NCBI GenBank assembly: GCA_016198685.1
Contig: JACQID010000006.1
Coordinates: 192,001 to 256,000, forward strand
Reading direction: 5' to 3'
From: Candidatus Aenigmatarchaeota archaeon
Lineage (GTDB): Archaea > Aenigmatarchaeota > Aenigmatarchaeia > GW2011-AR5
DNA: 64,000 nucleotides
In this document: positions 32,625 to 42,220 of the stretch, in pieces
Layout of the letters: each line of letters opens with the position of its first letter
Numbering within the stretch: position 1 is the stretch's first letter
Translations under genes and position numbers: made by a program
Notes under the pieces: model-generated
Seen by the model: only the letters and a program-made list of their open reading frames with translations
What the model was told of the DNA's origin: nothing
Database searches by the model: none

Positions 32625-34313
32625 CTACAAATAATATTTCCCCTGTTCTTTCTGCTCGCGGTCCTTGACTGAATCGGGCTTGTTCGCGCGTGGGCGCTTG
32701 GTTTGCGGGTCTTTTCTGAAAGTGACGTTGAGACTCTTCAAAAATTCATTAAGTCCTTCATTGAGAGTCATGACTCTGGCGTGACCGCGAATCCCAGGCT
32801 CGCCAGTGAATAGCATTGCTTTGTCAGACACATAGTTAATGAGCATGAGATCGTGGTCTATTATGAGGACAGTTCCGAAGCTCTTGAGTATCTTGGCGAG
32901 CGCCATGCGCTGGTCTACGTCAAGATAGGCCGAGGGCTCATCAAGAAGATAAAGGTCGGCATCCTTCATCAGGCAGAGGGCTATTGCGACGCGCTGCAAT
33001 TCTCCTCCGGATAGATTCTTCACGGATTTTTCCATGAGCCTTTCGATGCCCAGCTGGCGCATTATTATCTTGTCCTGCCTATCGGCAGTTCCGAGAAGCT
33101 CGGCAACTGTCCCGGCAAAATCGCTGTCAAGATACTGCGGCTTGTACGATATCTTCACGTCCTGGCGTTCAGCCAGCATCTTTGCAAACGTCGTTTTGCC
33201 AAGGCCGTTGGCGCCCAGAACGCCAACCACTTCGTTCTGGTATATAATGCCAGGGTCGACCGTGAGGGAAAACTGATCATAATTTTTCTGCATTTCATCG
33301 AAGGCTACTGCAGCGGTCTTCGATGGCTTCTTTTCGTTAGTTGCTTCGAACTGAAGCGGGTCTCGGAACTTTACGTTTTCTTCAGGGATATATCCGTCAA
33401 GGAAATTGTTTATTCCTTTCCTCACGGAATAAGGCTGAGAGACTATGCCGTATACGCCCGGCGAACCGTAGAATATATGTATCCTATCTGCCATGATATC
33501 AAGGGTTGCGAGGTCATGCTCAACTACCATCACAAGCTTTTTTTCTGCAAGCTTCTTTATCGTCATGGCGACGTTCACTCTCTGCCTCACGTCAAGGTAG
33601 GAAGATGGCTCGTCAAAATAATAGATATCGGCATCTTTGGCGAGTGCGGCGGCGATTGCGACCCGCTGCAATTCGCCCCCTGAAACCTCGGAAAGCTTGC
33701 GGTCCAAGACTGCGGAAAGCTCGAGTTGTTTTATGATTTCATCAGGGCAATTTTTCAGAGCCTCCTTGACAGTCCCTTTGATCACATCAGGCAATAGATT
33801 AACTTGCTGGGGCTTGTAAACGGACTTCACGTCCTCTTTCAAAAGCCGCTCGAAATAGTTCTGCAGTTCCGTGCCTCTATGCGTCTTCATTAGGCTTTCA
33901 TATACATCTTTTTTGCTTCTTCCTTCAGATACCATGCCAAGATTAGGAGCGAGCTGTCCGGATAATATGCGAAGGGCGCTGGTTTTGCCTGTACCGTTAG
34001 GGCCAAGAAGGCCGACAACGCCCTGGAAAGGCACTGGAAGTCCGAAGACGCGAAAGCCGTTTACCCCGTACTGCATTATCGGGCTTTCTTTCTTCTCTTC
34101 AGGAAGGTTAACTATATACCACGCATTGAAAGGGCACTTCTTGTGGCACAAGCCGCACCCTATGCACAAGGATTCATTTATCTGAGGATGGAATTTGTCC
34201 GGCCCGATATAAATGCATTCTTCTCCTTCCCTGTTGACAGGGCATGCGGCTATGCATTCGTAACTGCATTTCTTCGGGTTGCAAAGTTCGTTATCAAGGA
34301 CTGCTATTCTCAT
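32625..34313 (-). CDS. rli: ribosome recycling ATPase ABCE1/RLI1
   Basis: N-terminal 4Fe-4S CNPKKC..C..ACP/CIGCGLC; two ABC cassettes (GPNGTGKT, LSGGELQR, DEPS). Confidence 0.98.
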   Translation of the reverse strand: MRIAVLDNELCNPKKCSYECIAACPVNREGEECIYIGPDKFHPQINESLCIGCGLCHKKCPFNAWYIVNLPEEKKESPIMQYGVNGFRVFGLPVPFQGVVGLLGPNGTGKTSALRILSGQLAPNLGMVSEGRSKKDVYESLMKTHRGTELQNYFERLLKEDVKSVYKPQQVNLLPDVIKGTVKEALKNCPDEIIKQLELSAVLDRKLSEVSGGELQRVAIAAALAKDADIYYFDEPSSYLDVRQRVNVAMTIKKLAEKKLVMVVEHDLATLDIMADRIHIFYGSPGVYGIVSQPYSVRKGINNFLDGYIPEENVKFRDPLQFEATNEKKPSKTAAVAFDEMQKNYDQFSLTVDPGIIYQNEVVGVLGANGLGKTTFAKMLAERQDVKISYKPQYLDSDFAGTVAELLGTADRQDKIIMRQLGIERLMEKSVKNLSGGELQRVAIALCLMKDADLYLLDEPSAYLDVDQRMALAKILKSFGTVLIIDHDLMLINYVSDKAMLFTGEPGIRGHARVMTLNEGLNEFLKSLNVTFRKDPQTKRPRANKPDSVKDREQKEQGKYYL

Positions 34314-34342
34314 ACTAAACACTTGAATTTCAGAAATAAAAG

Positions 34343-34873
34343 CTACTCGTAGACGATGTCAAGGTCTTTTCCGTATATTCTGGAGAGTGAATCCAAGCTG
34401 CCGCGGCTTACACGTCTTGCGTATCGTCTTGACACGCGCAGCCTTAATTTCTCTTTTCCGTCATAAAGGACATTGACGCCTATTACAGGAACCATCAGCA
34501 TGTCTTCAGCCATCTTTTTCCTGTCGTCAGTCTCTTCGAGTATCTTCACTTTTCTCCTGAGGGCGTCCTCTATCTTTTTTACGCCCCTGCCGCCTTTCCC
34601 TATTATTTTGTTGACAGCACCCTTTTTTGCGGTTATGACGACCCGGTCGCCATCTGTGACGCTCTCATAATCGGCTTCTGAATCGACCGAGTGAAGGGCT
34701 CTGGCCACATCTACCTCAAGCTGAGTAGTCTTGCCTTCGTGGAGGTTTTTCAGGCAGCTTTGGCACAGAACGCCACTACCTCTGCAGAACCGGCAAATTT
34801 TCATGAAATCACTATTAGGCTGATAGACTAACTTTCTAAGATAACTTTTTAACTCTTGTTGGGGATAGCTCAA
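34343..34873 (-). CDS. NusA-like KH-domain protein with N-terminal Zn finger
   Basis: ICRFC.GSGVLCQSC; KIIGKGGRGVKKI GxxG loop. Confidence 0.8.
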   Translation of the reverse strand: MSYPQQELKSYLRKLVYQPNSDFMKICRFCRGSGVLCQSCLKNLHEGKTTQLEVDVARALHSVDSEADYESVTDGDRVVITAKKGAVNKIIGKGGRGVKKIEDALRRKVKILEETDDRKKMAEDMLMVPVIGVNVLYDGKEKLRLRVSRRYARRVSRGSLDSLSRIYGKDLDIVYE

Positions 34874-34887
34874 TCAGCGGCGGCTGC

Positions 34888-35919
34888 ATGACGGTCTCCA
34901 AGAAGATGATAAATATGGTAACAAAAAAACAATTAGACAGGGCGCATGACCTTGATTTCCGCAAGACATTGGATGTCAAGGATTTTGTTCCAGTCAAAGG
35001 TCATGATTTTTCCAAAAAGATGAACTTGAAGGAGTTTATAGATTCCTTCAAGACGCTCGGCTTTCAAGCGACCAACCTTGGCATAGGAGTGGATATTGTA
35101 AGAAAAATGCGCAAAGAGAAAGTCAAGATAATACTTACTTTTACCTCCAATCTCACGACATCTGGCATAAGGGATGTAATAACATTTCTGGCTAAAAACA
35201 GGCATGTTGATGTGCTTTGTACGACAGGCGGGGGAATAGAGGAAGATATACTCAAGTGTTATGATCCATTTGTTCTAGGTCACTTTGACAAGGACGCAAA
35301 AGAGCTTTATGGTAAAGGCATGAACAGGACAGGGAACATTTACGTTCCGGATTCAATATATGCAAAATTTGAAAAATTCACATTGGCGCTTCTTGAGAAA
35401 TTTTACAAGAGGCAAATAGCAGAAAACAAGATATTGACAGGCATAGAGCTTGTCAAGGAAATGGGCAAGGAAATAAACAACGAGTCGTCTTTCCTTTATT
35501 GGGCGTACAAAAACAACATTCCGGTCTTTTCGCCGTCAATACTTGACGGCGCCATTGGTGATATTGTATGGTTCTTCAAGCATCAAAATCCTGATTTCAA
35601 GTTCGATTCTTCTGAAGACATATATCAGATGAATGACATGCCGCTTGACGCCAAAGACACAGGCGTCATCGCCCTTGGAGCCGGAGCTTCCAGACATTAT
35701 GTCCTTAACGCCCATATTTTCAGGGGTGGCACAAAATATGCTGTGTTTATTTCCAGCGGCACGGAATGGGATGGTTCCACATCCAGCGCCAAGCCTGATG
35801 AGGCTTACACATGGGGAAAAATCAGGTTGTTCGAGCCTTTCTACAAGAACTCTGTTGAAGTCGCTGGGGACGCGACGATACTGTTTCCGCTGATAGTCGC
35901 TGGGGCATTTCTTGATTAA
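34888..35919 (+). CDS. dys: deoxyhypusine synthase
   Basis: GFQATNLG, TSN..TSG, TGGGIEED, GMNRTGN, DGSTSSAKPDEAYTWGK (active Lys retained). Confidence 0.97.
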   Translation: MTVSKKMINMVTKKQLDRAHDLDFRKTLDVKDFVPVKGHDFSKKMNLKEFIDSFKTLGFQATNLGIGVDIVRKMRKEKVKIILTFTSNLTTSGIRDVITFLAKNRHVDVLCTTGGGIEEDILKCYDPFVLGHFDKDAKELYGKGMNRTGNIYVPDSIYAKFEKFTLALLEKFYKRQIAENKILTGIELVKEMGKEINNESSFLYWAYKNNIPVFSPSILDGAIGDIVWFFKHQNPDFKFDSSEDIYQMNDMPLDAKDTGVIALGAGASRHYVLNAHIFRGGTKYAVFISSGTEWDGSTSSAKPDEAYTWGKIRLFEPFYKNSVEVAGDATILFPLIVAGAFLD

Positions 35920-35949
35920 TCTCGCGTATTGCGGTAATCTTAATTTAAA

Positions 35950-36031
35950 CATCGAATTCCGCCGTATTAACACGGCGGATGAAACAACGGGAATTCGATG
36001 TGCAAATCCACCGCTTTCAAGCGGTGGATTT
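35950..36031. other. two adjacent strong hairpins in intergenic DNA
   Basis: CATCGAATTCC/GGAATTCGATG enclosing GCCGT/ACGGC; AAATCCACCGC-TTTCAA-GCGGTGGATTT. Confidence 0.8.
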
Positions 36032-36057
36032 TTAAAGCTTGGTATAAAAAATACACG

Positions 36058-36489
36058 ATGGCAGAAAACAGCGAGATTTCTTTTGCAGATTGGGTTGCTA
36101 AAAACGGACTAAAATACGGTGAACCTGTAGCCATACTCCACAACGGCCATTATACCGCTAATACAAAAAGAAAGCCTGTGAGTCTTTTTCCGGGAGATGC
36201 AATCGTGGGAAATCTCCAGACGTTTAACTGGACACGCTATGATAATCATGCGCCTGAAAACGGTGCTGTTTTGGGCCTCAGATACCCAATAAAAGTATCT
36301 ACTGAGGATAAAAGCGCAAGAAGATATGCCCCTGTCAACGGTCGCATTCCTTTCCATGAATACATAACAGAGGGCAATAACGGCAATGGTGTTGCATTTG
36401 TCGTAGGAAGAGAGGCAGTTGCCAAAGCAATAGGGATTAAGCCCGAGCAATTGAAATCTCTCATGGCCGACCCCTACAAAGCGCTATAA
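36058..36489 (+). CDS. hypothetical protein (likely start 36058)
   Basis: Open frame; TTTTAAA box about 25 nt upstream. Confidence 0.6.
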   Translation: MAENSEISFADWVAKNGLKYGEPVAILHNGHYTANTKRKPVSLFPGDAIVGNLQTFNWTRYDNHAPENGAVLGLRYPIKVSTEDKSARRYAPVNGRIPFHEYITEGNNGNGVAFVVGREAVAKAIGIKPEQLKSLMADPYKAL

Positions 36490-36516
36490 AACCGATTTTT
36501 CTTTTCTTGTTTTTGC

Positions 36517-37092
36517 TTACCTAATCCCTATCGATTGGAGCGTTTCCACGACGCGAGTCATGTCTTTCTTGGCGAAGATGAATATGGTGTCTGTGTAGCA
36601 GCTGTACGTTTCTTGTATGTTGATTCCGCGCTCGGCTAAGGCCGAACAGACGTATGCCATGAAGCCCGTATTGTTCTCTATTTCCGCCGGGCTGATTATT
36701 CTGACCTCCAGCATGTTCTCGTTCTTGCGCATGCATGGTATATCCATCGGCTCTTCGGTTATCACGGTTGTTGCGTTGCTGCCTTTTATCACGTGAAGAT
36801 AATCCGTTTTCCTCTCCATGTTGCTGGATTTCAGTATGTAAACATTCACGCCCGTTTTTATCTCAAGGCGGCTATTTTTCAGCAGGCTTATGATGTTTTT
36901 GCCGTCGGAAGTTGCCTCGTCGCCAAAACGCCTTGCAGCCACTATGACGGCGTCAAAATTCTTCACGTTCAGCTCTTGCTGCGCCGCACGGGCGAGTGAA
37001 GAGAAGTTGACAAAGCCCCTCTTCAGGGCCCAGACCAGATACGGTCTTTCCCTTATCCATGCATGAACGCGCTTCGCTATAGGCTTTTCCAT
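36517..37092 (-). CDS. HTH + ACT-domain amino-acid-sensing regulator
   Basis: GFVNFSSLAR N-terminal domain; C-terminal ACT TGFMAYVCSALAERGINIQETYSCYTDTIFI. Confidence 0.85.
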   Translation of the reverse strand: MEKPIAKRVHAWIRERPYLVWALKRGFVNFSSLARAAQQELNVKNFDAVIVAARRFGDEATSDGKNIISLLKNSRLEIKTGVNVYILKSSNMERKTDYLHVIKGSNATTVITEEPMDIPCMRKNENMLEVRIISPAEIENNTGFMAYVCSALAERGINIQETYSCYTDTIFIFAKKDMTRVVETLQSIGIR

Positions 37093-37121
37093 GTTTATCT
37101 TATGTCAAAAAACTATTTAAA

Positions 37122-37139
37122 ATGTCCTATTTTGGACAT
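37122..37139. promoter_or_regulatory. inverted repeat, candidate operator in divergent promoter
   Basis: ATGTCC-N6-GGACAT between TATA-like TATTTAAA and TTTATA; extra half-sites ATGTCA (37102) and TTGTCC (~37153). Confidence 0.55.
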
Positions 37140-37180
37140 GAATTATTTATATTGTCCGGGGGATAGAAATGCTTCGGTGA

Positions 37181-37894
37181 ATGAAATGGAAAGGGATCAT
37201 CAAAGAAGACTCGAAGATTATCGGCATAAGTATAGAGTATGGTCACACGTATCTTGGAGACCCGCCAATACAAGAAGCAGGAATAGCGATTGCGAAAGAC
37301 ATTGAAGACATTGCCACAAACACTGGTGTTGCCGTTTCAAGGCTCGTGCTCATAGACGACTATAACCGTTCTGGGGGAGGCAAGGAAGAATACGCTAGTT
37401 TTTATTCCAAGCATCTTGAATTCTTCGGAATGAAACCGACACATATAGTATGGGAGGGAGATTGCGTCGGGCCTGCAAAAACACTTCTCGATTCTTTGCG
37501 TGAAGTTCCTCCTGGGGCAAATCTTTTGGGTAAATATTTTAAAGGTGAGAATATGTATGTTTCGGATCCGAGCGGAAAAAGAATAAAGGTAAGACATGGC
37601 ATGCATTATCAATGCCCGGTTCTTGCTGCAGTTTCAGAGTTGTCACAATTGGGGGTTGTGGACGTTCCTTATCATGCGACTGGGGAGCTGCGCCATTATA
37701 AAGGGAAGGCCGCTGTTGTTGTATTGCCTATGCAATATCGTCCCGTGGAAGAAAATGCCAATAGGCTAATTTCTCTGTTATATGGAGATGAACATGCGAT
37801 ACACAGGTTTTTCTTTGATGGCCGACCTTCAAAGGACTACGTTGCGTCATGGCTTGTCCAAAATGAGGTGATAAATGATGCAAGGATACCTTGA
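37181..37894 (+). CDS. class I aaRS-like HUP-fold protein (SCO2522-like)
   Basis: SIEYGHTY (HIGH-position), LVLIDDYN, WEGDC, YQCPVLAA...LG, VLPMQYRPVE. Family recalled from memory. Confidence 0.55.
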   Translation: MKWKGIIKEDSKIIGISIEYGHTYLGDPPIQEAGIAIAKDIEDIATNTGVAVSRLVLIDDYNRSGGGKEEYASFYSKHLEFFGMKPTHIVWEGDCVGPAKTLLDSLREVPPGANLLGKYFKGENMYVSDPSGKRIKVRHGMHYQCPVLAAVSELSQLGVVDVPYHATGELRHYKGKAAVVVLPMQYRPVEENANRLISLLYGDEHAIHRFFFDGRPSKDYVASWLVQNEVINDARIP

Positions 37895-38942
37895 ATGCGT
37901 AAAGTGTAAAAAGAAATATGAAGAATCGATAAAAACTGTTACTTGTATCCACAATAAATATTACGATTATCTTGAGTACAAGAATGTAGCGCCGGCAAAA
38001 AATACAGTGACTCTGGGGCAAGGCAATACCCCCATGGTAAAATTAAAAAAGACGGGAGCTATGATTGGATGCCAAGAATTATATGTTAAGGACGAGAGTA
38101 AGAATCCGACAGGCTCATTCAAGGATAGGGAGAGTGCTGTATTGATAGACAAGGCGGTTGATTTTGGTATAAAGGATGTTTTTGCAATATCGTCCGGCAA
38201 TGCCGCAATATCCCTTTCAGCATACGCAAAGGTGGCTGGAATACGTTGCACATGCTATATCCCCGATCATGCATCCGAAGGTAAAAAGAAAATGATACAG
38301 CTTTTTGGAGGAAAAATAGTGGAAATGGCAGGAACATATGAAGTGGTTTATAGAAAAATTCTGGACGAAAATATTCCGGGGTGGAATTGCACCTTAAACC
38401 CGTTCAAATCCGCAGGAAGCAAAAAAATCGCTTGGGAAATATACGAAAAGGTAGGGATGCCGGATAAGATTATCGTTCCGTGCGGTAATGGATCTAATCT
38501 TGCAGGCATATGGTCAGGCTTCAAGGAAATCGCGCAGATGAAAAAAATCGCGAAGCTTCCACAAATGATAGGAGTGCAGGTCGAAGGAGCTTCGCCGCTC
38601 AAAAGCGCCATGGAAAGTGGAAATGATTATGAGATTTTAAGCAACATTGCTGATTCCGTTGCTGAAGGTATCGTAGCAACCGAATCGTACTCTTCGCCAA
38701 AAGCATTGCGTGCATTGAAGGAATCAAAGGGTTCTGTATTAGAGGTGAATGAACGTGAGATAAAGAGCGCCTTAAGGCATATGTTAATTGAGGAATCCTT
38801 GGTAATGGAGCCTACGTCTGCAGCTGCATTTGCAGCCGTCTGGAAGCTCAACATTTCCGGTAAAAAAGTCATAGTTTTGCTGACGTCTAGTGGGACAAAT
38901 ACTCTTTCTGAGATATCGGATATTGTTTTGGGTTCGCGCTGA
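37875..38942 (+). CDS. threonine-synthase-like PLP fold-II enzyme
   Basis: TLGQGNTP, NPTGSFKDR (PLP Lys), SSGNAA, VPCGNGSNL, EPTSAAA. Confidence 0.88.
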   Translation: MMQGYLECVKCKKKYEESIKTVTCIHNKYYDYLEYKNVAPAKNTVTLGQGNTPMVKLKKTGAMIGCQELYVKDESKNPTGSFKDRESAVLIDKAVDFGIKDVFAISSGNAAISLSAYAKVAGIRCTCYIPDHASEGKKKMIQLFGGKIVEMAGTYEVVYRKILDENIPGWNCTLNPFKSAGSKKIAWEIYEKVGMPDKIIVPCGNGSNLAGIWSGFKEIAQMKKIAKLPQMIGVQVEGASPLKSAMESGNDYEILSNIADSVAEGIVATESYSSPKALRALKESKGSVLEVNEREIKSALRHMLIEESLVMEPTSAAAFAAVWKLNISGKKVIVLLTSSGTNTLSEISDIVLGSR

Positions 38943-38975
38943 TAATATTAAAAACACTGCCAAAGAAGTGATACC

Positions 38976-40637
38976 ATGACGCTCGAGAAATTCCGGGAAG
39001 AGTCGAGGCAAATAGCAGGCAATTACAATACGCTTTTGGAAACGCCTCCAAAGGAAATAAAGGCGGATTTGGCCATGCCGTGCTTCTCGCTTGCAAGGGA
39101 ACTTCGCAAAGCGCCGCAGGAAATAGCCGTTTCGCTCGCAAAAGAATTTTCAAAAAACAAATTTACCTTGATAAAAGAAATCAAGGCTGAAGGGTCATAT
39201 GTGAATTTTTACGCCAACTGGGACAAGCTATCGGAAGAAATAATAACAAGTGCGTCCGAAAAAGAGTATGGCAAAGGAAATGCAATGGGCAAGGTTATTG
39301 TGGAGTTTGCGCATCCGAATACGCACAAGCTCTTCCATATAGGGCACTTAAGGAACATAATTACCGGCGAATCCGTAGCGCGAATGCTAGAGTATTCGGG
39401 CGTGAAAGTCATACGGGCAAACTACCAGGGAGACGTGGGCTTGCATATAGCAAAATGTTTGTGGGCCATTGGCAAGGAAGACGTAAAAAAAATAAAGAAT
39501 CTTGACGATAAGATACGGTTCCTTGGCAAGGCTTATGCAAAAGGCAGCAAGTCATACGAAGAAGATGAAAACGCGAAAAAAGAAATAATAGAGATCAATG
39601 CGAAAATATACAAGAAAGACCCGGGCATAATGAAGCTCTGGCAGGAAACCCGCCAGTGGAGCCTGGATTATTTTGCAAGAATATATGCGAGGGTCTATAC
39701 AAGATATGACAGGCTGTTTTTCGAATCCGAAGTTGCTGGAAAAGGCCTCAAGATATCCCAGCATGCGCTGAAGAAAGGGATACTCAAAGAGAGCGATGGC
39801 GCGGTAATATTTGACGGCGAATCGCATGGTCTTGATAAGCGCGTATTCATAAACAGCCTGGGCTTTCCGACATATGAAGCCAAAGAGCTTGCCCTCGCCG
39901 AGCTAGAATTTACCGAGTTTGGGAAAATAGACAAGTGCATACATGTAGTCGGGCCTGAACAGGCCAGCTTCTTTAAGGTGACGTTCAAGGTCGAAGAGCT
40001 CCTCGATCAGAAATACAAGGATAAACAGTTTCATCTGGCTTATGGCTGGGTAAAATTACGGGACGGCAAGATGTCCTCACGGCTCGGCAACGTCATAGAA
40101 GGCGAGTGGCTGCTTCAAGAGCTCAAGAAGGCCATACTAGGGAATTATGTTGCAAAAGAGGATCACGATGAAAAGCTCAAGGAAGAGATAGCGGAGGCGG
40201 GCGCAATCGGGGCGGCAAAGTATTATTTCCTCAAGTACGGGACTGCATCCGAAATTTCCTTTGACATAAAGGAAGCGGCGTCGCTTGAAGGTGATACAGG
40301 CCCGTACCTGCAGTATACTCATGCACGGGCTGCATCTGTCCTGAGAAAATCAGAGAAGACGCCACAACCAGGACCGGTTTCGGAGAATGAGACAGAGCTT
40401 GCGCGCAAGCTTGCGGAATTCCCGGAGTCTGCCCGGAAAGCTGCAGAAGAATTGAAGCCGAACATCGTGGCAAATTATGTTTTTGAACTCGCATCGATGT
40501 TCAATGCCTATTATCATGAAGAGAAAATAATAGGATCGCAAAACGAGGCCCAGAAACTTGCATTGGTCGGAGCTGTCAAGAACGTTATAGGAATTTCCCT
40601 AAATCTTCTGGGGATAAAGCCGCTCGAAAAGATGTAA
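38976..40637 (+). CDS. argS: arginine--tRNA ligase
   Basis: PNTHKLFHIGHLRN, GKMSSRLG, EGDTGPYLQYTHAR, DALR anticodon domain. Confidence 0.98.
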   Translation: MTLEKFREESRQIAGNYNTLLETPPKEIKADLAMPCFSLARELRKAPQEIAVSLAKEFSKNKFTLIKEIKAEGSYVNFYANWDKLSEEIITSASEKEYGKGNAMGKVIVEFAHPNTHKLFHIGHLRNIITGESVARMLEYSGVKVIRANYQGDVGLHIAKCLWAIGKEDVKKIKNLDDKIRFLGKAYAKGSKSYEEDENAKKEIIEINAKIYKKDPGIMKLWQETRQWSLDYFARIYARVYTRYDRLFFESEVAGKGLKISQHALKKGILKESDGAVIFDGESHGLDKRVFINSLGFPTYEAKELALAELEFTEFGKIDKCIHVVGPEQASFFKVTFKVEELLDQKYKDKQFHLAYGWVKLRDGKMSSRLGNVIEGEWLLQELKKAILGNYVAKEDHDEKLKEEIAEAGAIGAAKYYFLKYGTASEISFDIKEAASLEGDTGPYLQYTHARAASVLRKSEKTPQPGPVSENETELARKLAEFPESARKAAEELKPNIVANYVFELASMFNAYYHEEKIIGSQNEAQKLALVGAVKNVIGISLNLLGIKPLEKM

Positions 40638-41123
40638 TCAGGGTATTTTTCTCACAGTTCTTTCCACTAAATCGAAAAGAAAAGCTTGACCCCTTCCAAT
40701 GCGATCCAATAGGCCATTTATGGCTAATTCAGCTCTCAGATAAAAAGTGGCAAAATCTTCGCATACATCCTCATGAGAAATGACTACAACGGCATCGGCG
40801 TTGCGCCCCCTGCTTTCTATATTGCTCATCAAACGACGCTGGTAACTAACGTTTCCTTCGGTGTAACCCTCGTTAATGCCCTGGCTTCCAGCAAGATAAT
40901 CGAGCGTCTCAACGGAAGACGCACCGAGTTCCCCAGCTACTATTCTTGCGGTCTCTTGTGCTCTTCCAAGGGGCGATGTGATCAAGCGAATGCTGCCTTC
41001 GCCTATCTGATTCTTTAGATATACGCCAAGAGCTTGGGCCTGTTCAACGCCCAGTTCGCTTAATCCGGACTCGTAATTTCTCGAGAGCGGGTCGCCGTGC
41101 CTCGCAATTGCAACATACCTCAT
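40638..41123 (-). CDS. histidine phosphatase (SixA-like)
   Basis: IARHG, LSELGVEQA, TSPLGRAQETA, VISHE. Confidence 0.88.
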   Translation of the reverse strand: MRYVAIARHGDPLSRNYESGLSELGVEQAQALGVYLKNQIGEGSIRLITSPLGRAQETARIVAGELGASSVETLDYLAGSQGINEGYTEGNVSYQRRLMSNIESRGRNADAVVVISHEDVCEDFATFYLRAELAINGLLDRIGRGQAFLFDLVERTVRKIP

Positions 41124-41225
41124 GATTTAAGAAAGGGCTAAAAGCTTTAATTCATTGGCAGATTCAGCCTGCGGATGAATTGTTCTCCTGCAAGATTGGA
41201 TGCCGTGAAAGGACGAAAAGATTTT

Positions 41226-41684
41226 TCATGCCCGTCCCATGAATTCCGTTGTGCCGTCAGGGCGCACAAAAATAGCGTGCCCCCTTCTCAATTCAGGATG
41301 CGGTATTACAAGGCCGTATTTGCTACGCACATAAAAAGGCGGCAATGCGCTGGAAACTGCCTTGTGGGTTACCACAACTACATTATCTGCCATGTGAACA
41401 GCTTCGTCAACGCGGCCAATAATTGCGTTCAACGGTATTCTACCCGATGTATATTCGCGGAGCATAGGATCAGTTTCCACATATGCATCGCCCAAGAGAT
41501 CCGCCAATCTTTCCGCGCTGTTTTGGGACATGGGACTGCCGGCGGTGAGTATATAGAAGCATCCGGCCTGTCCCGATTCCTTTATCCTGCAGCCAAGATA
41601 ATCGATTTGCTCTGCGCCGTATGTATTCAGGCTGCCATCTTCTTGATGATAATTGCCGTGCCTTGCAATGAAAAGATTTGGCAT
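41226..41684 (-). CDS. histidine phosphatase (SixA-like), divergent paralog
   Basis: IARHG, LNTYGAEQ, VVVTHK; the SP.xRA motif is degenerate. Confidence 0.78.
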   Translation of the reverse strand: MPNLFIARHGNYHQEDGSLNTYGAEQIDYLGCRIKESGQAGCFYILTAGSPMSQNSAERLADLLGDAYVETDPMLREYTSGRIPLNAIIGRVDEAVHMADNVVVVTHKAVSSALPPFYVRSKYGLVIPHPELRRGHAIFVRPDGTTEFMGRA

Positions 41685-41707
41685 GACGTCTTTACATCAG
41701 AAAATTA

Positions 41708-42220
41708 TTAATTTGTTTTTCTGGCCAGAATAACGTATTCTTTTTCCTTGCCGTGGATTTCAAATTCAAATATTATCTGAAAATCAGTGAGAAGAGAACG
41801 AAGCAGGTTCCTCCTCTCTTCATAGACGCCATGCGAAAAGAAGACAGACAAAAGTGCCAGTCCTCCGGGCTTCAATACCCTGGCGAAATCCGTGTCTTTC
41901 ACGAGATGCATCGTATCAACAGACACCACTGCATCAAAGCGACCGTTCTTGAAAGGAAGAAACTTTGCGTCGCCAATTACCAGAGTTTCCTTGTCGACTT
42001 TTTTCATGAAATCCTTGCGGATGTCCAAAGAGACAACGTTTTTGACGTCAAATTCCTTGCTGACAAGAAAACGCTCCAAATAGCCGGAACCGGATCCTAT
42101 ATCCAGAACCCGTTTTTCGAGTATGGATGAGAAAAAGTCCCTTCCCATGATGCGCAGGAACTCGTCGTATTTTTCCCATTGAACATCCTGCCATGAATCA
42201 TAAACCTGAGGCGTGAACAT
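41708..42220 (-). CDS. class I SAM-dependent methyltransferase
   Basis: VLDIGSGSG, GDAKFLPF..GRFDAV, RVLKPGG. Confidence 0.9.
   Translation of the reverse strand: MFTPQVYDSWQDVQWEKYDEFLRIMGRDFFSSILEKRVLDIGSGSGYLERFLVSKEFDVKNVVSLDIRKDFMKKVDKETLVIGDAKFLPFKNGRFDAVVSVDTMHLVKDTDFARVLKPGGLALLSVFFSHGVYEERRNLLRSLLTDFQIIFEFEIHGKEKEYVILARKTN

Follow-up and report, generated by a model that had tools for sequence, protein, structure and literature searches.

A stripped arginyl-tRNA synthetase core encoded with a threonine synthase-like enzyme beside argS in DPANN archaea and candidate phyla radiation bacteria

The 64,000-nucleotide stretch of DNA analyzed here (the window; contig JACQID010000006.1, positions 192,001 to 256,000) comes from a metagenome-assembled genome (MAG) of a Candidatus Aenigmatarchaeota archaeon, a member of the DPANN group, whose 0.93 Mb assembly is 93.7% complete. 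Within the window, a gene for a protein with ACT domains diverges from three closely packed genes, which encode a small protein designated ORF2 (from open reading frame, ORF), a pyridoxal 5′-phosphate (PLP)-dependent enzyme resembling threonine synthase (ThrC), and arginyl-tRNA synthetase (ArgRS, the product of argS). ORF2 is a cut-down paralog of the ArgRS catalytic core in which all domains that bind the body of the tRNA have been lost. We tentatively propose, at somewhat less than even odds, that ORF2 and the ThrC-like gene constitute a co-inherited two-gene module whose products may act on arginine or a close derivative, and that this module is co-expressed with argS under control of the ACT protein. 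The features of the locus are as follows.

36517..37092, minus strand: DUF7523 and tandem-ACT protein of 191 amino acids, a probable amino acid (arginine)-responsive regulator, divergent from the operon (Pfam, AlphaFold2 model).
37122..37139, no strand: candidate operator; the 88-bp intergenic region holds this perfect palindrome (ATGTCC-N6-GGACAT), with a divergent TATA-like box on either side.
37181..37894, plus strand: ORF2, 237 amino acids, a "mini-ArgRS", or predicted stand-alone and stripped class-I aminoacyl-tRNA synthetase (aaRS) core of the SCO2522 superfamily (AlphaFold2 model, structure searches).
37875..38942, plus strand: zinc-ribbon ThrC-like PLP enzyme of fold type II, 355 amino acids, translationally coupled to ORF2 (PALP, 228 bits).
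38976..40637, plus strand: argS, 553 amino acids, the only arginyl-tRNA synthetase gene of the genome, housekeeping (TIGR00456 and three Pfam domains).

A first-pass annotation, made by a reader that saw only the letters and a list of ORFs, had placed four genes here. The ORF listing confirms their coordinates, as well as the exact lengths of the overlap between ORF2 and the PLP gene (20 nt) and of the gap between the PLP gene and argS (33 nt). Because the zinc ribbon of the PLP enzyme begins at residue 8, translation should start at Met 1 or Met 2, and the overlap is therefore real, at 17-20 nt. Searches of Pfam and NCBIfam assign the divergent gene to DUF7523 and ACT_7, the third gene to PALP and ThrC-like families, and the fourth to argS, and they leave ORF2 without any family. 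Specifically, ORF2 reaches no threshold for ArgRS (PF00750 or TIGR00456) and carries neither an Add1 nor a DALR domain. Its relatives are rare when sought with the single sequence, amounting to 2 in a set of 5.8 billion proteins and, in a set of 1.84 billion representatives, to 22 at E≤1e-3. A search of positions 34000-42000 against Rfam detects no RNA family, and PADLOC likewise detects nothing that would point to a defense system.

An AlphaFold2 model of ORF2 built with these homologs (pLDDT 92, pTM 0.89) links the protein to ArgRS. When compared with 48,161 chains by VIA-align, the model best matches 1bs2 (Z 17.8, rmsd 2.9, 187 residues aligned), 4q2t (Z 17.5), and 2zuf (Z 17.2). Lower matches include GluRS (15.1), CysRS (14.9), GluQRS (14.8; 4a91), and MshC (13.4; 3c8z), with MetRS also in the range of 13-15. 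Foldseek likewise retrieves ArgRS (1iq0 and 2zue, E 5.6e-6), and the leading clusters in a structure search of the ESM Atlas are again ArgRS. Thus, with ArgRS the nearest relative in three independent structure searches, the predicted fold of ORF2 is that of a class-I aaRS catalytic core of the HUP/Rossmannoid type. Since the structural match spans residues 12-226 of the model, ORF2 has no further domain, and the model and searches together bear out the earlier impression of a class-I aaRS-like fold without an anticodon-binding domain.

The same relationship is evident from profile comparisons. The ORF2 family profile matches ArgRS proteins of Aenigmatarchaeota with a per-genome E value of 3e-5, the iterated profile matches ArgRS proteins of related genomes over two colinear segments (E 1e-8 to 7e-7), and hhalign relates the two families at E 6e-4. 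The first-pass annotation had named three groups for comparison of the fold, and they fared differently: CysRS and MshC are among the structural matches and the SCO2522 family is a distant relative, whereas no cyclodipeptide synthase (CDPS) occurs among the 50 best VIA-align or Foldseek matches, the top ones being true synthetases, GluQRS, or MshC, an outcome with which membership in the CDPS family would still be compatible.

The suggested resemblance to SCO2522 was right at the level of the superfamily, in that 14 of 22 ORF2 homologs match the NCBIfam entry for this family (NF040566; best E 1.4e-15). ORF2 of the window gives only a weak match over its Y-Q-C-P-V-L-A-A segment (11.6 bits against a cut-off of 200; E 0.14), and its sequence places it outside the SCO2522 family, as a remote relative within the superfamily. 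No mention of SCO2522 was found in the literature searched. In bacteria, SCO2522-like proteins have a second conserved context (L009:2406-6771 and L021:4106-9067), where they adjoin a large partner with NAD-synthase (PP-loop), 2-oxoglutarate (2OG)-Fe(II) oxygenase, and cytidylyltransferase-like parts; this partner is a single 1143-residue fusion in L021 and is split into two genes in L009. A short metagenome contig (L020:43-1127) carries a tandem of two SCO2522-like genes that overlap by a few bases.

The conserved residues of ORF2 suggest which parts of an ArgRS active site have been kept. The four motifs noticed previously, SIEYGHTY (residues 17-24), LIDDYN (57-62), WE (91-92), and CPVLAA (145-150), are real and make up the conserved core of the family. 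In an alignment of 29 homologs that are only 16-70% identical, E19, H22, Y24, D59, E92, and C145 are invariant, as is L182. Profile alignment sets the consensus sequence V-E-A-A-H-I-Y of the family, which reads I-E-Y-G-H-T-Y in ORF2 of the window, on V-E-F-A-H-P-N of ArgRS, a β-bulge located just before the HIGH motif, and in a second aligned segment it sets the WE(S) motif, with E92, on F-E-S. In E. coli ArgRS, D118 of this bulge binds the guanidinium group of arginine, whereas A121 and N123 bind its main chain (PMC3956977). According to the sequence alignment, E19, H22, and Y24 of ORF2 occupy the positions of D118, A121, and N123.

The HIGH signature itself has been lost. The window residues aligned to H-V-G-H of ArgRS are G-D-P-P-I-Q-E-A-G, which include no His, and although most CPR-type members (from bacteria of the candidate phyla radiation, or CPR) keep one His (E-H) at this position, the family does not conserve HIGH. 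The label of "HIGH-position motif" that SIEYGHTY had been given was consequently rejected, as the alignment places this segment on the arginine-binding bulge upstream of HIGH. No conserved KMSKS motif occurs past the last strand of the ORF2 family, most members of which end 10-15 residues beyond it; the five closest sequences alone conserve a P-S-K-D segment in this region. By motif analogy, C145-x-x-L-(D/A)149 probably corresponds to Y313-x-x-x-D317 of ArgRS. All six of the invariant catalytic-type residues reside at strand C-termini or helix N-termini of the model, which would be the edge of a Rossmann sheet where active sites usually lie. As judged from these alignments, ORF2 keeps an ArgRS-type amino acid pocket with a new Cys and is devoid of adenylation machinery.

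Could ORF2 be an ATP-dependent amino acid ligase of the MshC or GluQRS type that uses a non-canonical ATP site? The appearance of both proteins among the structural matches (Z 13.4 and 14.8, respectively) would be consistent with such a function. However, MshC and GluQRS retain HIGH and KMSKS and use ATP, whereas both His residues of HIGH and the KMSKS motif are missing from the window protein, and neither motif is conserved in its family. These losses make an adenylating ligase like MshC unlikely, and we regard the ligase explanation overall as highly improbable.

The second member of the pair belongs to the PALP family and has threonine synthase 2zsj as its best match in the PDB (E 1.1e-44). 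It possesses an N-terminal zinc ribbon and the F-K-D-R lysine motif, yet it falls below all six ThrC equivalog cut-offs: TIGR00260 (144.2 versus 167.1), PRK08197 (193.2 versus 303), and four others (190/358, 180.2/421, 166.1/301, and 156.5/266). It is the sole PALP-family gene in the genome. Homoserine dehydrogenase (Homoserine_dh) was not found in this 93.7%-complete genome, and neither was thrB (homoserine kinase), the three GHMP kinases present being mevalonate kinase, phosphomevalonate kinase, and diphosphomevalonate decarboxylase. With scores below the curated cut-offs and a genome that lacks the homoserine pathway, the enzyme is not an ordinary ThrC, in agreement with the initial supposition.

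The loop N-P-x-R-x-E-G of the enzyme is presumably the phosphate-binding loop, as in the structure of Thermus thermophilus ThrC. It carries Lys in the window enzyme and its nearest relatives and Arg in most of the clade, and the notion that this clade has lost the phosphate-loop Arg was rejected on these grounds. The motifs F-K-D-R-E and S-G-N-A-A are present, too, in ThrC-like proteins scoring above the TIGR00260 cut-off, whereas A-x-E-S-Y-S-S-P-K-A is specific to the clade. Elsewhere in the genome is a divergent ORF that resembles aspartate kinase (G000:C3:27014-27811; locus L110:931-2631), scoring 83 bits against a cut-off of 208 and including a C-terminal ACT region.

These characteristics bear on the proposal that the PLP enzyme, though divergent, is truly a threonine synthase. 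ORF2 would then supply or activate its substrate as an unconventional homoserine-handling protein, and the proximity of argS would be inherited synteny without function. In accordance with this proposal, threonine synthases lead the matches in both sequence and PDB searches, the PLP Lys and a basic phosphate-loop residue are retained, the ACT domain of the divergent protein resembles the Thr- or Lys-binding regulatory domains of aspartokinases, and the genome has the aspartokinase-like gene just described. Against it, besides the subthreshold scores and the missing homoserine dehydrogenase and thrB, ORF2 has no ATP motifs and so is not a plausible kinase. Moreover, as described below, the linkage to argS is maintained under several arrangements of the genes in CPR and DPANN alike, and homologs of the ACT protein flank arginine genes rather than threonine genes. 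We therefore consider this explanation very unlikely.

The association between ORF2 and the PLP enzyme is widespread. ORF2 homologs of 26-70% identity have a PALP gene next downstream, usually overlapping. Conversely, PLP relatives of 42-53% identity from CPR bacteria (Microgenomates and others) and Woesearchaeota are preceded by ORFs without Pfam matches, and these ORFs belong to the ORF2 family (E 1e-28 to 3e-32). A scan of metagenomes added 80 loci, which are not phylogenetically independent of one another. When 106 PLP proteins are placed in a maximum-likelihood tree, a single clade of 54 rows, with a Shimodaira-Hasegawa-like approximate likelihood ratio test (SH-aLRT) support of 97, holds every member linked to ORF2 or argS, and the other 51 rows include none. 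Clustering at 70% identity reduces this clade to 41 lineages. ORF2 is adjacent in 29 of the 36 assessable lineages of this clade, which span DPANN and CPR. Similarly, argS lies no more than 5 kb away in 19 of 24 assessable lineages, compared with a chance expectation of about 1% given one argS per genome of roughly 1 Mb. The three genes are found in at least four orders, including ORF2-PLP-argS, PLP-ORF2-argS (L042), argS-ORF2-PLP (L067, L069), and arrangements on opposite strands (L059, L070).

Within the phylum itself the distribution is narrow. Among 371 genomes, a PLP homolog of at least 44% identity is present in exactly the four that have ORF2, and argS adjoins the module in all four. 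In a fifth genome (G200), the contig breaks exactly at the module, and a near-identical metagenome contig (L003) has the module in full. A narrow search for related loci returned only a 97%-identical MAG. The prediction that ORF2 homologs would co-occur with the PLP enzyme and argS across DPANN and CPR is thus upheld by the neighborhood counts, and each of the three observations on which the first-pass annotation had staked its case, namely a HUP fold, this co-occurrence, and a PLP enzyme other than an ordinary ThrC, came out in its favor.

A nested subclade of the PLP enzymes lacks ORF2 (L045, L047, L051, L053, L057, L060, L061, and L068), and argS is still often near. Its members are flanked by a 280-residue GNAT-like protein, a second GNAT, and an M15 (VanX-type) dipeptidase, and in places also by a cyclase-family protein, an M20 deacylase, and a protein resembling arginine deiminase (ADI) or dimethylarginine dimethylaminohydrolase (DDAH). 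The ADI/DDAH-like protein, the M20 deacylase, the GNATs, and the M15 dipeptidase of this sister lineage are enzymes of the kind that act on arginine or acyl-amino acids.

The argS gene of the window is a conventional one. It scores 361.7 bits against a cut-off of 261.65 for TIGR00456, encodes Arg_tRNA_synt_N, tRNA-synt_1d, and DALR_1 domains, and is present in single copy, with no second match in the genome. The encoded ArgRS is 60-61% identical to those of genomes from the same family that have no module. Furthermore, the gene for deoxyhypusine synthase (DS) and argS are direct neighbors in many genomes of the family (L116-L123), including ones without the module, whereas in the window an orphan ORF (35998-36489) for a protein of 163 amino acids without a family, together with the ACT gene and the module, parts the DS gene (34888-35919) from argS. 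This identity and shared neighborhood indicate that argS is native and has a housekeeping function. As a result, the possibility that ArgRS moved with the module by horizontal gene transfer was rejected for this lineage, given that DS, ACT, and argS genes are also neighbors in module-less kin, and argS is the sole and native ArgRS gene rather than a copy dedicated to biosynthesis. ArgRS types are mixed among the genomes examined (G189, G197, and G199): G189 has two ArgRS genes, 61% and 35% identical to that of the window, and two genomes of the same GTDB genus have ArgRS proteins only 41-42% identical to it. Two paralogous small genes of the histidine-phosphatase superfamily (40638-41123 and 41226-41684) are convergent to argS, and one of them is retained in the 70%-identity relative L003.

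The divergent protein matches ACT_7 (36 bits, cut-off 27) and DUF7523 (31.6 bits). In its AlphaFold2 model (pLDDT 88.6), residues 61-191 form a tandem ACT unit of the aspartokinase type (Z 13.2 to 1zvp, 12.9 to 5yei, and 12.5 for the next match), and the arginine sensors CASTOR1/2 are weaker structural matches (Z 6.4-6.8). Residues 1-60, the DUF7523 portion, comprise four predicted helices, and fold searches with the whole protein are filled by the ACT portion. Of its earlier description as a helix-turn-helix-ACT regulator, the tandem ACT fold is thus substantiated; the helix-turn-helix is only probable.

Homologs of this ACT-DUF7523 protein are present in 37 of the 371 phylum genomes, and their neighbors are informative. 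In genomes without the module, the gene stands head-to-head with argS at eight loci, and its other neighbors (loci L158-L174) include deoxyhypusine synthase, a gene of the OTCace family (ornithine/aspartate carbamoyltransferase; L158), argininosuccinate synthase argG (L166), and a GNAT (L160). The simplest reading is that the ACT protein would be an arginine-responsive regulator of argS and arginine genes, with ORF2 and the PLP gene inserted between the ACT gene and argS. The palindrome between the divergent genes (ATGTCC-TATTTT-GGACAT) is identical in L003, and similar palindromes of the TGTTC/GAACA type lie beside ACT genes in the distant relatives L025, L166, and L168. Across the genome, a degenerate form of the palindrome occurs at about the chance frequency (4 copies, compared with 3.35 in shuffled sequence); we therefore rejected it as a genome-wide regulon motif and treat its role as an operator as a hypothesis. 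Neither argG nor ADI was found in the genome of the window, so the host is probably an arginine auxotroph.

Taken as a whole, these data lead us to favor, with a probability of roughly 0.4, a module that is regulated by arginine, needs no ATP, and serves ArgRS by salvaging or editing arginine or one of its derivatives. ORF2, which by its lost motifs would be unable to form an aminoacyl-adenylate, would bind an arginyl moiety, either free or esterified, and would pass it to the PLP enzyme or receive it from that enzyme. Alternatively, ORF2 might carry out a hydrolysis or transfer step by using C145 or a metal held by its Glu, His, Asp, and Cys residues. The PLP enzyme would convert an imported amino acid related to arginine, for example the wrong stereoisomer, an analog, or a phospho- or acyl-precursor. 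The net effect would be arginine salvage or pool editing, such that ArgRS is supplied with the correct L-arginine in a cell that cannot make it, and the ACT protein would switch the operon according to the arginine level.

Several observations weigh against this proposal. The window subclade has Ala in place of the Asp of C-x-x-L-D that most family members keep, and V-E where others have Q-Q, so arginine binding by the window protein is not assured. The Cys and Asp positions are mapped onto ArgRS by motif analogy rather than by residue-level superposition. With the catalytic Lys and a basic phosphate-loop residue retained, the PLP enzyme may act on a phospho-amino acid, and even threonine synthase chemistry is possible. 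In addition, common descent and transfer of the genes as a block could account for part of the linkage to argS, and gene neighborhoods are the only basis for the candidate operator and for the idea that the ACT protein senses arginine. A complex prediction for ORF2 and the PLP enzyme scored 0.00, gave no verdict, and was not used as evidence in either direction.

In the model put forward by the first-pass annotation, ORF2 would be an ATP-independent enzyme like a CDPS or an arginine-specific CDPS (RCDPS). It would take the arginyl group from Arg-tRNA(Arg) made by the adjacent ArgRS and join it to an amino acid that the PLP enzyme makes or modifies, giving an amide, peptide, or cyclodipeptide. 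Several aminoacyl-tRNA transferases have a GNAT fold, and the replacement of ORF2 by a GNAT-like protein beside the PLP enzyme in the ORF2-less subclade would suit a transfer reaction of this kind. So would the strong argS linkage, a class-I aaRS core that, as in CDPSs, lacks HIGH and KMSKS, and an apparent pocket with an invariant Cys together with Glu, Asp, and Tyr. The fungal arginine-specific cyclodipeptide synthases offer a precedent, in that they use tRNA and have a PLP enzyme in the cluster (PMC11610942). However, CDPSs are absent from the top structural matches, no surface or domain for binding tRNA is evident in the 237-residue core, no tailoring, export, or resistance genes were seen near the module, and the hosts, as minimal symbionts, have one ArgRS each, a housekeeping enzyme. 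We consider this model unlikely, and its use of tRNA, its amide formation, and its non-standard amino acid product are conjecture.

Another explanation is that ORF2 is not an enzyme, but rather a regulatory or chaperone subunit that binds arginine (or the end of an uncharged tRNA) and tunes the PLP enzyme or ArgRS to the availability of arginine. The aaRS paralogs known to serve as regulatory subunits include HisZ. The loss of the ATP motifs with partial retention of the ligand pocket, the translational coupling of ORF2 to the PLP gene, and the arginine-regulon setting of the module are all compatible with such a role. Yet six residues of catalytic or metal-binding type (Glu, His, Tyr, Asp, Glu, and Cys) stay invariant down to 16% identity, which exceeds the usual requirements for binding. 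Also, some bacterial members have neither the PLP enzyme nor argS and instead reside beside the NAD-synthase/2OG-oxygenase/cytidylyltransferase-like proteins. A purely regulatory ORF2 is therefore quite unlikely.

A bolder reading can also be formulated. The mini-ArgRS might be the first ATP-independent enzyme of the ArgRS branch to use an invariant Cys or a metal site for a reaction with the arginyl ester of tRNA(Arg) or with arginyl-adenylate bound to an enzyme. It and the ThrC-like enzyme would then make up a tRNA-linked system for amino acid conversion or proofreading that is widespread in CPR and DPANN and operates by a logic like that of SepRS/SepCysS or of trans-editing factors. We view this as a speculative idea that is unlikely to hold.

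Why would cells with so few biosynthetic genes maintain such a pair? CPR and DPANN organisms are almost devoid of amino acid biosynthesis, and a conserved, coupled pair tied to the sole ArgRS is thus likely to matter for obtaining or policing arginine. Stand-alone paralogs of aaRS cores are a known kind of protein, whereas the papers found contain no description of an ArgRS-derived core that lacks the ATP motifs and is coupled to argS and to a ThrC-like enzyme. With ORF2, the few known stand-alone synthetase cores (CDPS, MshC, GluQRS, and HisZ) are joined by an ArgRS-derived branch without ATP motifs. At the same time, the orphan SCO2522 family, which has NCBIfam and Pfam entries without a function, gains a structural identity and a testable context, and the ACT-DUF7523 protein becomes a candidate regulator of the arginine regulon in archaea without ArgR. 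All of these proposals on the module are testable with simple recombinant proteins.

The nearest known system is ArgRS itself. Its catalytic domain (yeast 1BS2, human 4Q2T, and Pyrococcus horikoshii 2ZUF) and ORF2 have a common Rossmann-type core (Z 17.2-17.8, 187-202 residues aligned, 2.9-3.1 Å). Like ArgRS, ORF2 keeps what appears by alignment to be the equivalent of the guanidinium-binding acidic residue (D118/E148), in the form of Glu, along with the bulge that contacts the main chain of the substrate. Unlike ArgRS, it is only 237 residues long and has no Add1, inserted domains, DALR anticodon domain, HIGH, or KMSKS, and its Cys probably stands, by motif analogy, at the position of the gatekeeper Tyr. 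The SCO2522 family (NF040566; PF28097) shows clear superfamily homology to the ORF2 family, but its bacterial members differ in having the NAD-synthase, oxygenase, and cytidylyltransferase-like neighbors rather than the PLP enzyme or argS.

CDPSs stem from the TyrRS/TrpRS branch. Like ORF2, the CDPSs (AlbC type) and RCDPSs (AnkA/AvaA) are stand-alone class-I aaRS-like cores without ATP motifs, whereas the ORF2 locus has no natural-product context. The fungal RCDPSs are specific for arginine, depend on tRNA, require a Cys, a DDXXE motif, and two Tyr residues, and have a PLP enzyme in their cluster (PMC11610942). MshC and GluQRS (YadB) similarly lack an anticodon domain and have non-translational roles, but ORF2 differs from them in its loss of HIGH and KMSKS. 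Threonine synthases (2ZSJ, 6CGQ, 1UIM, and 2D1F; E 1e-37 to 1e-45) have the fold, the F-K-D-R motif, and the basic phosphate-loop residue in common with the PLP enzyme of the module. That enzyme is set apart by its scores below the cut-offs, by its own clade (SH-aLRT 97) and motif, by genomes without the homoserine pathway, and by linkage to argS and the mini-ArgRS.

A final comparison is with EpmA (PoxA) and EpmB (YjeK). EpmA is a class II LysRS paralog that has an intact ATP site and modifies EF-P, whereas no target protein is indicated for the pair formed by ORF2 and the PLP enzyme. Even so, EpmA and EpmB provide an analogy for this pair, as they too combine an aaRS paralog with a PLP-type enzyme that modifies an amino acid, and they do so for a non-canonical use of that amino acid.

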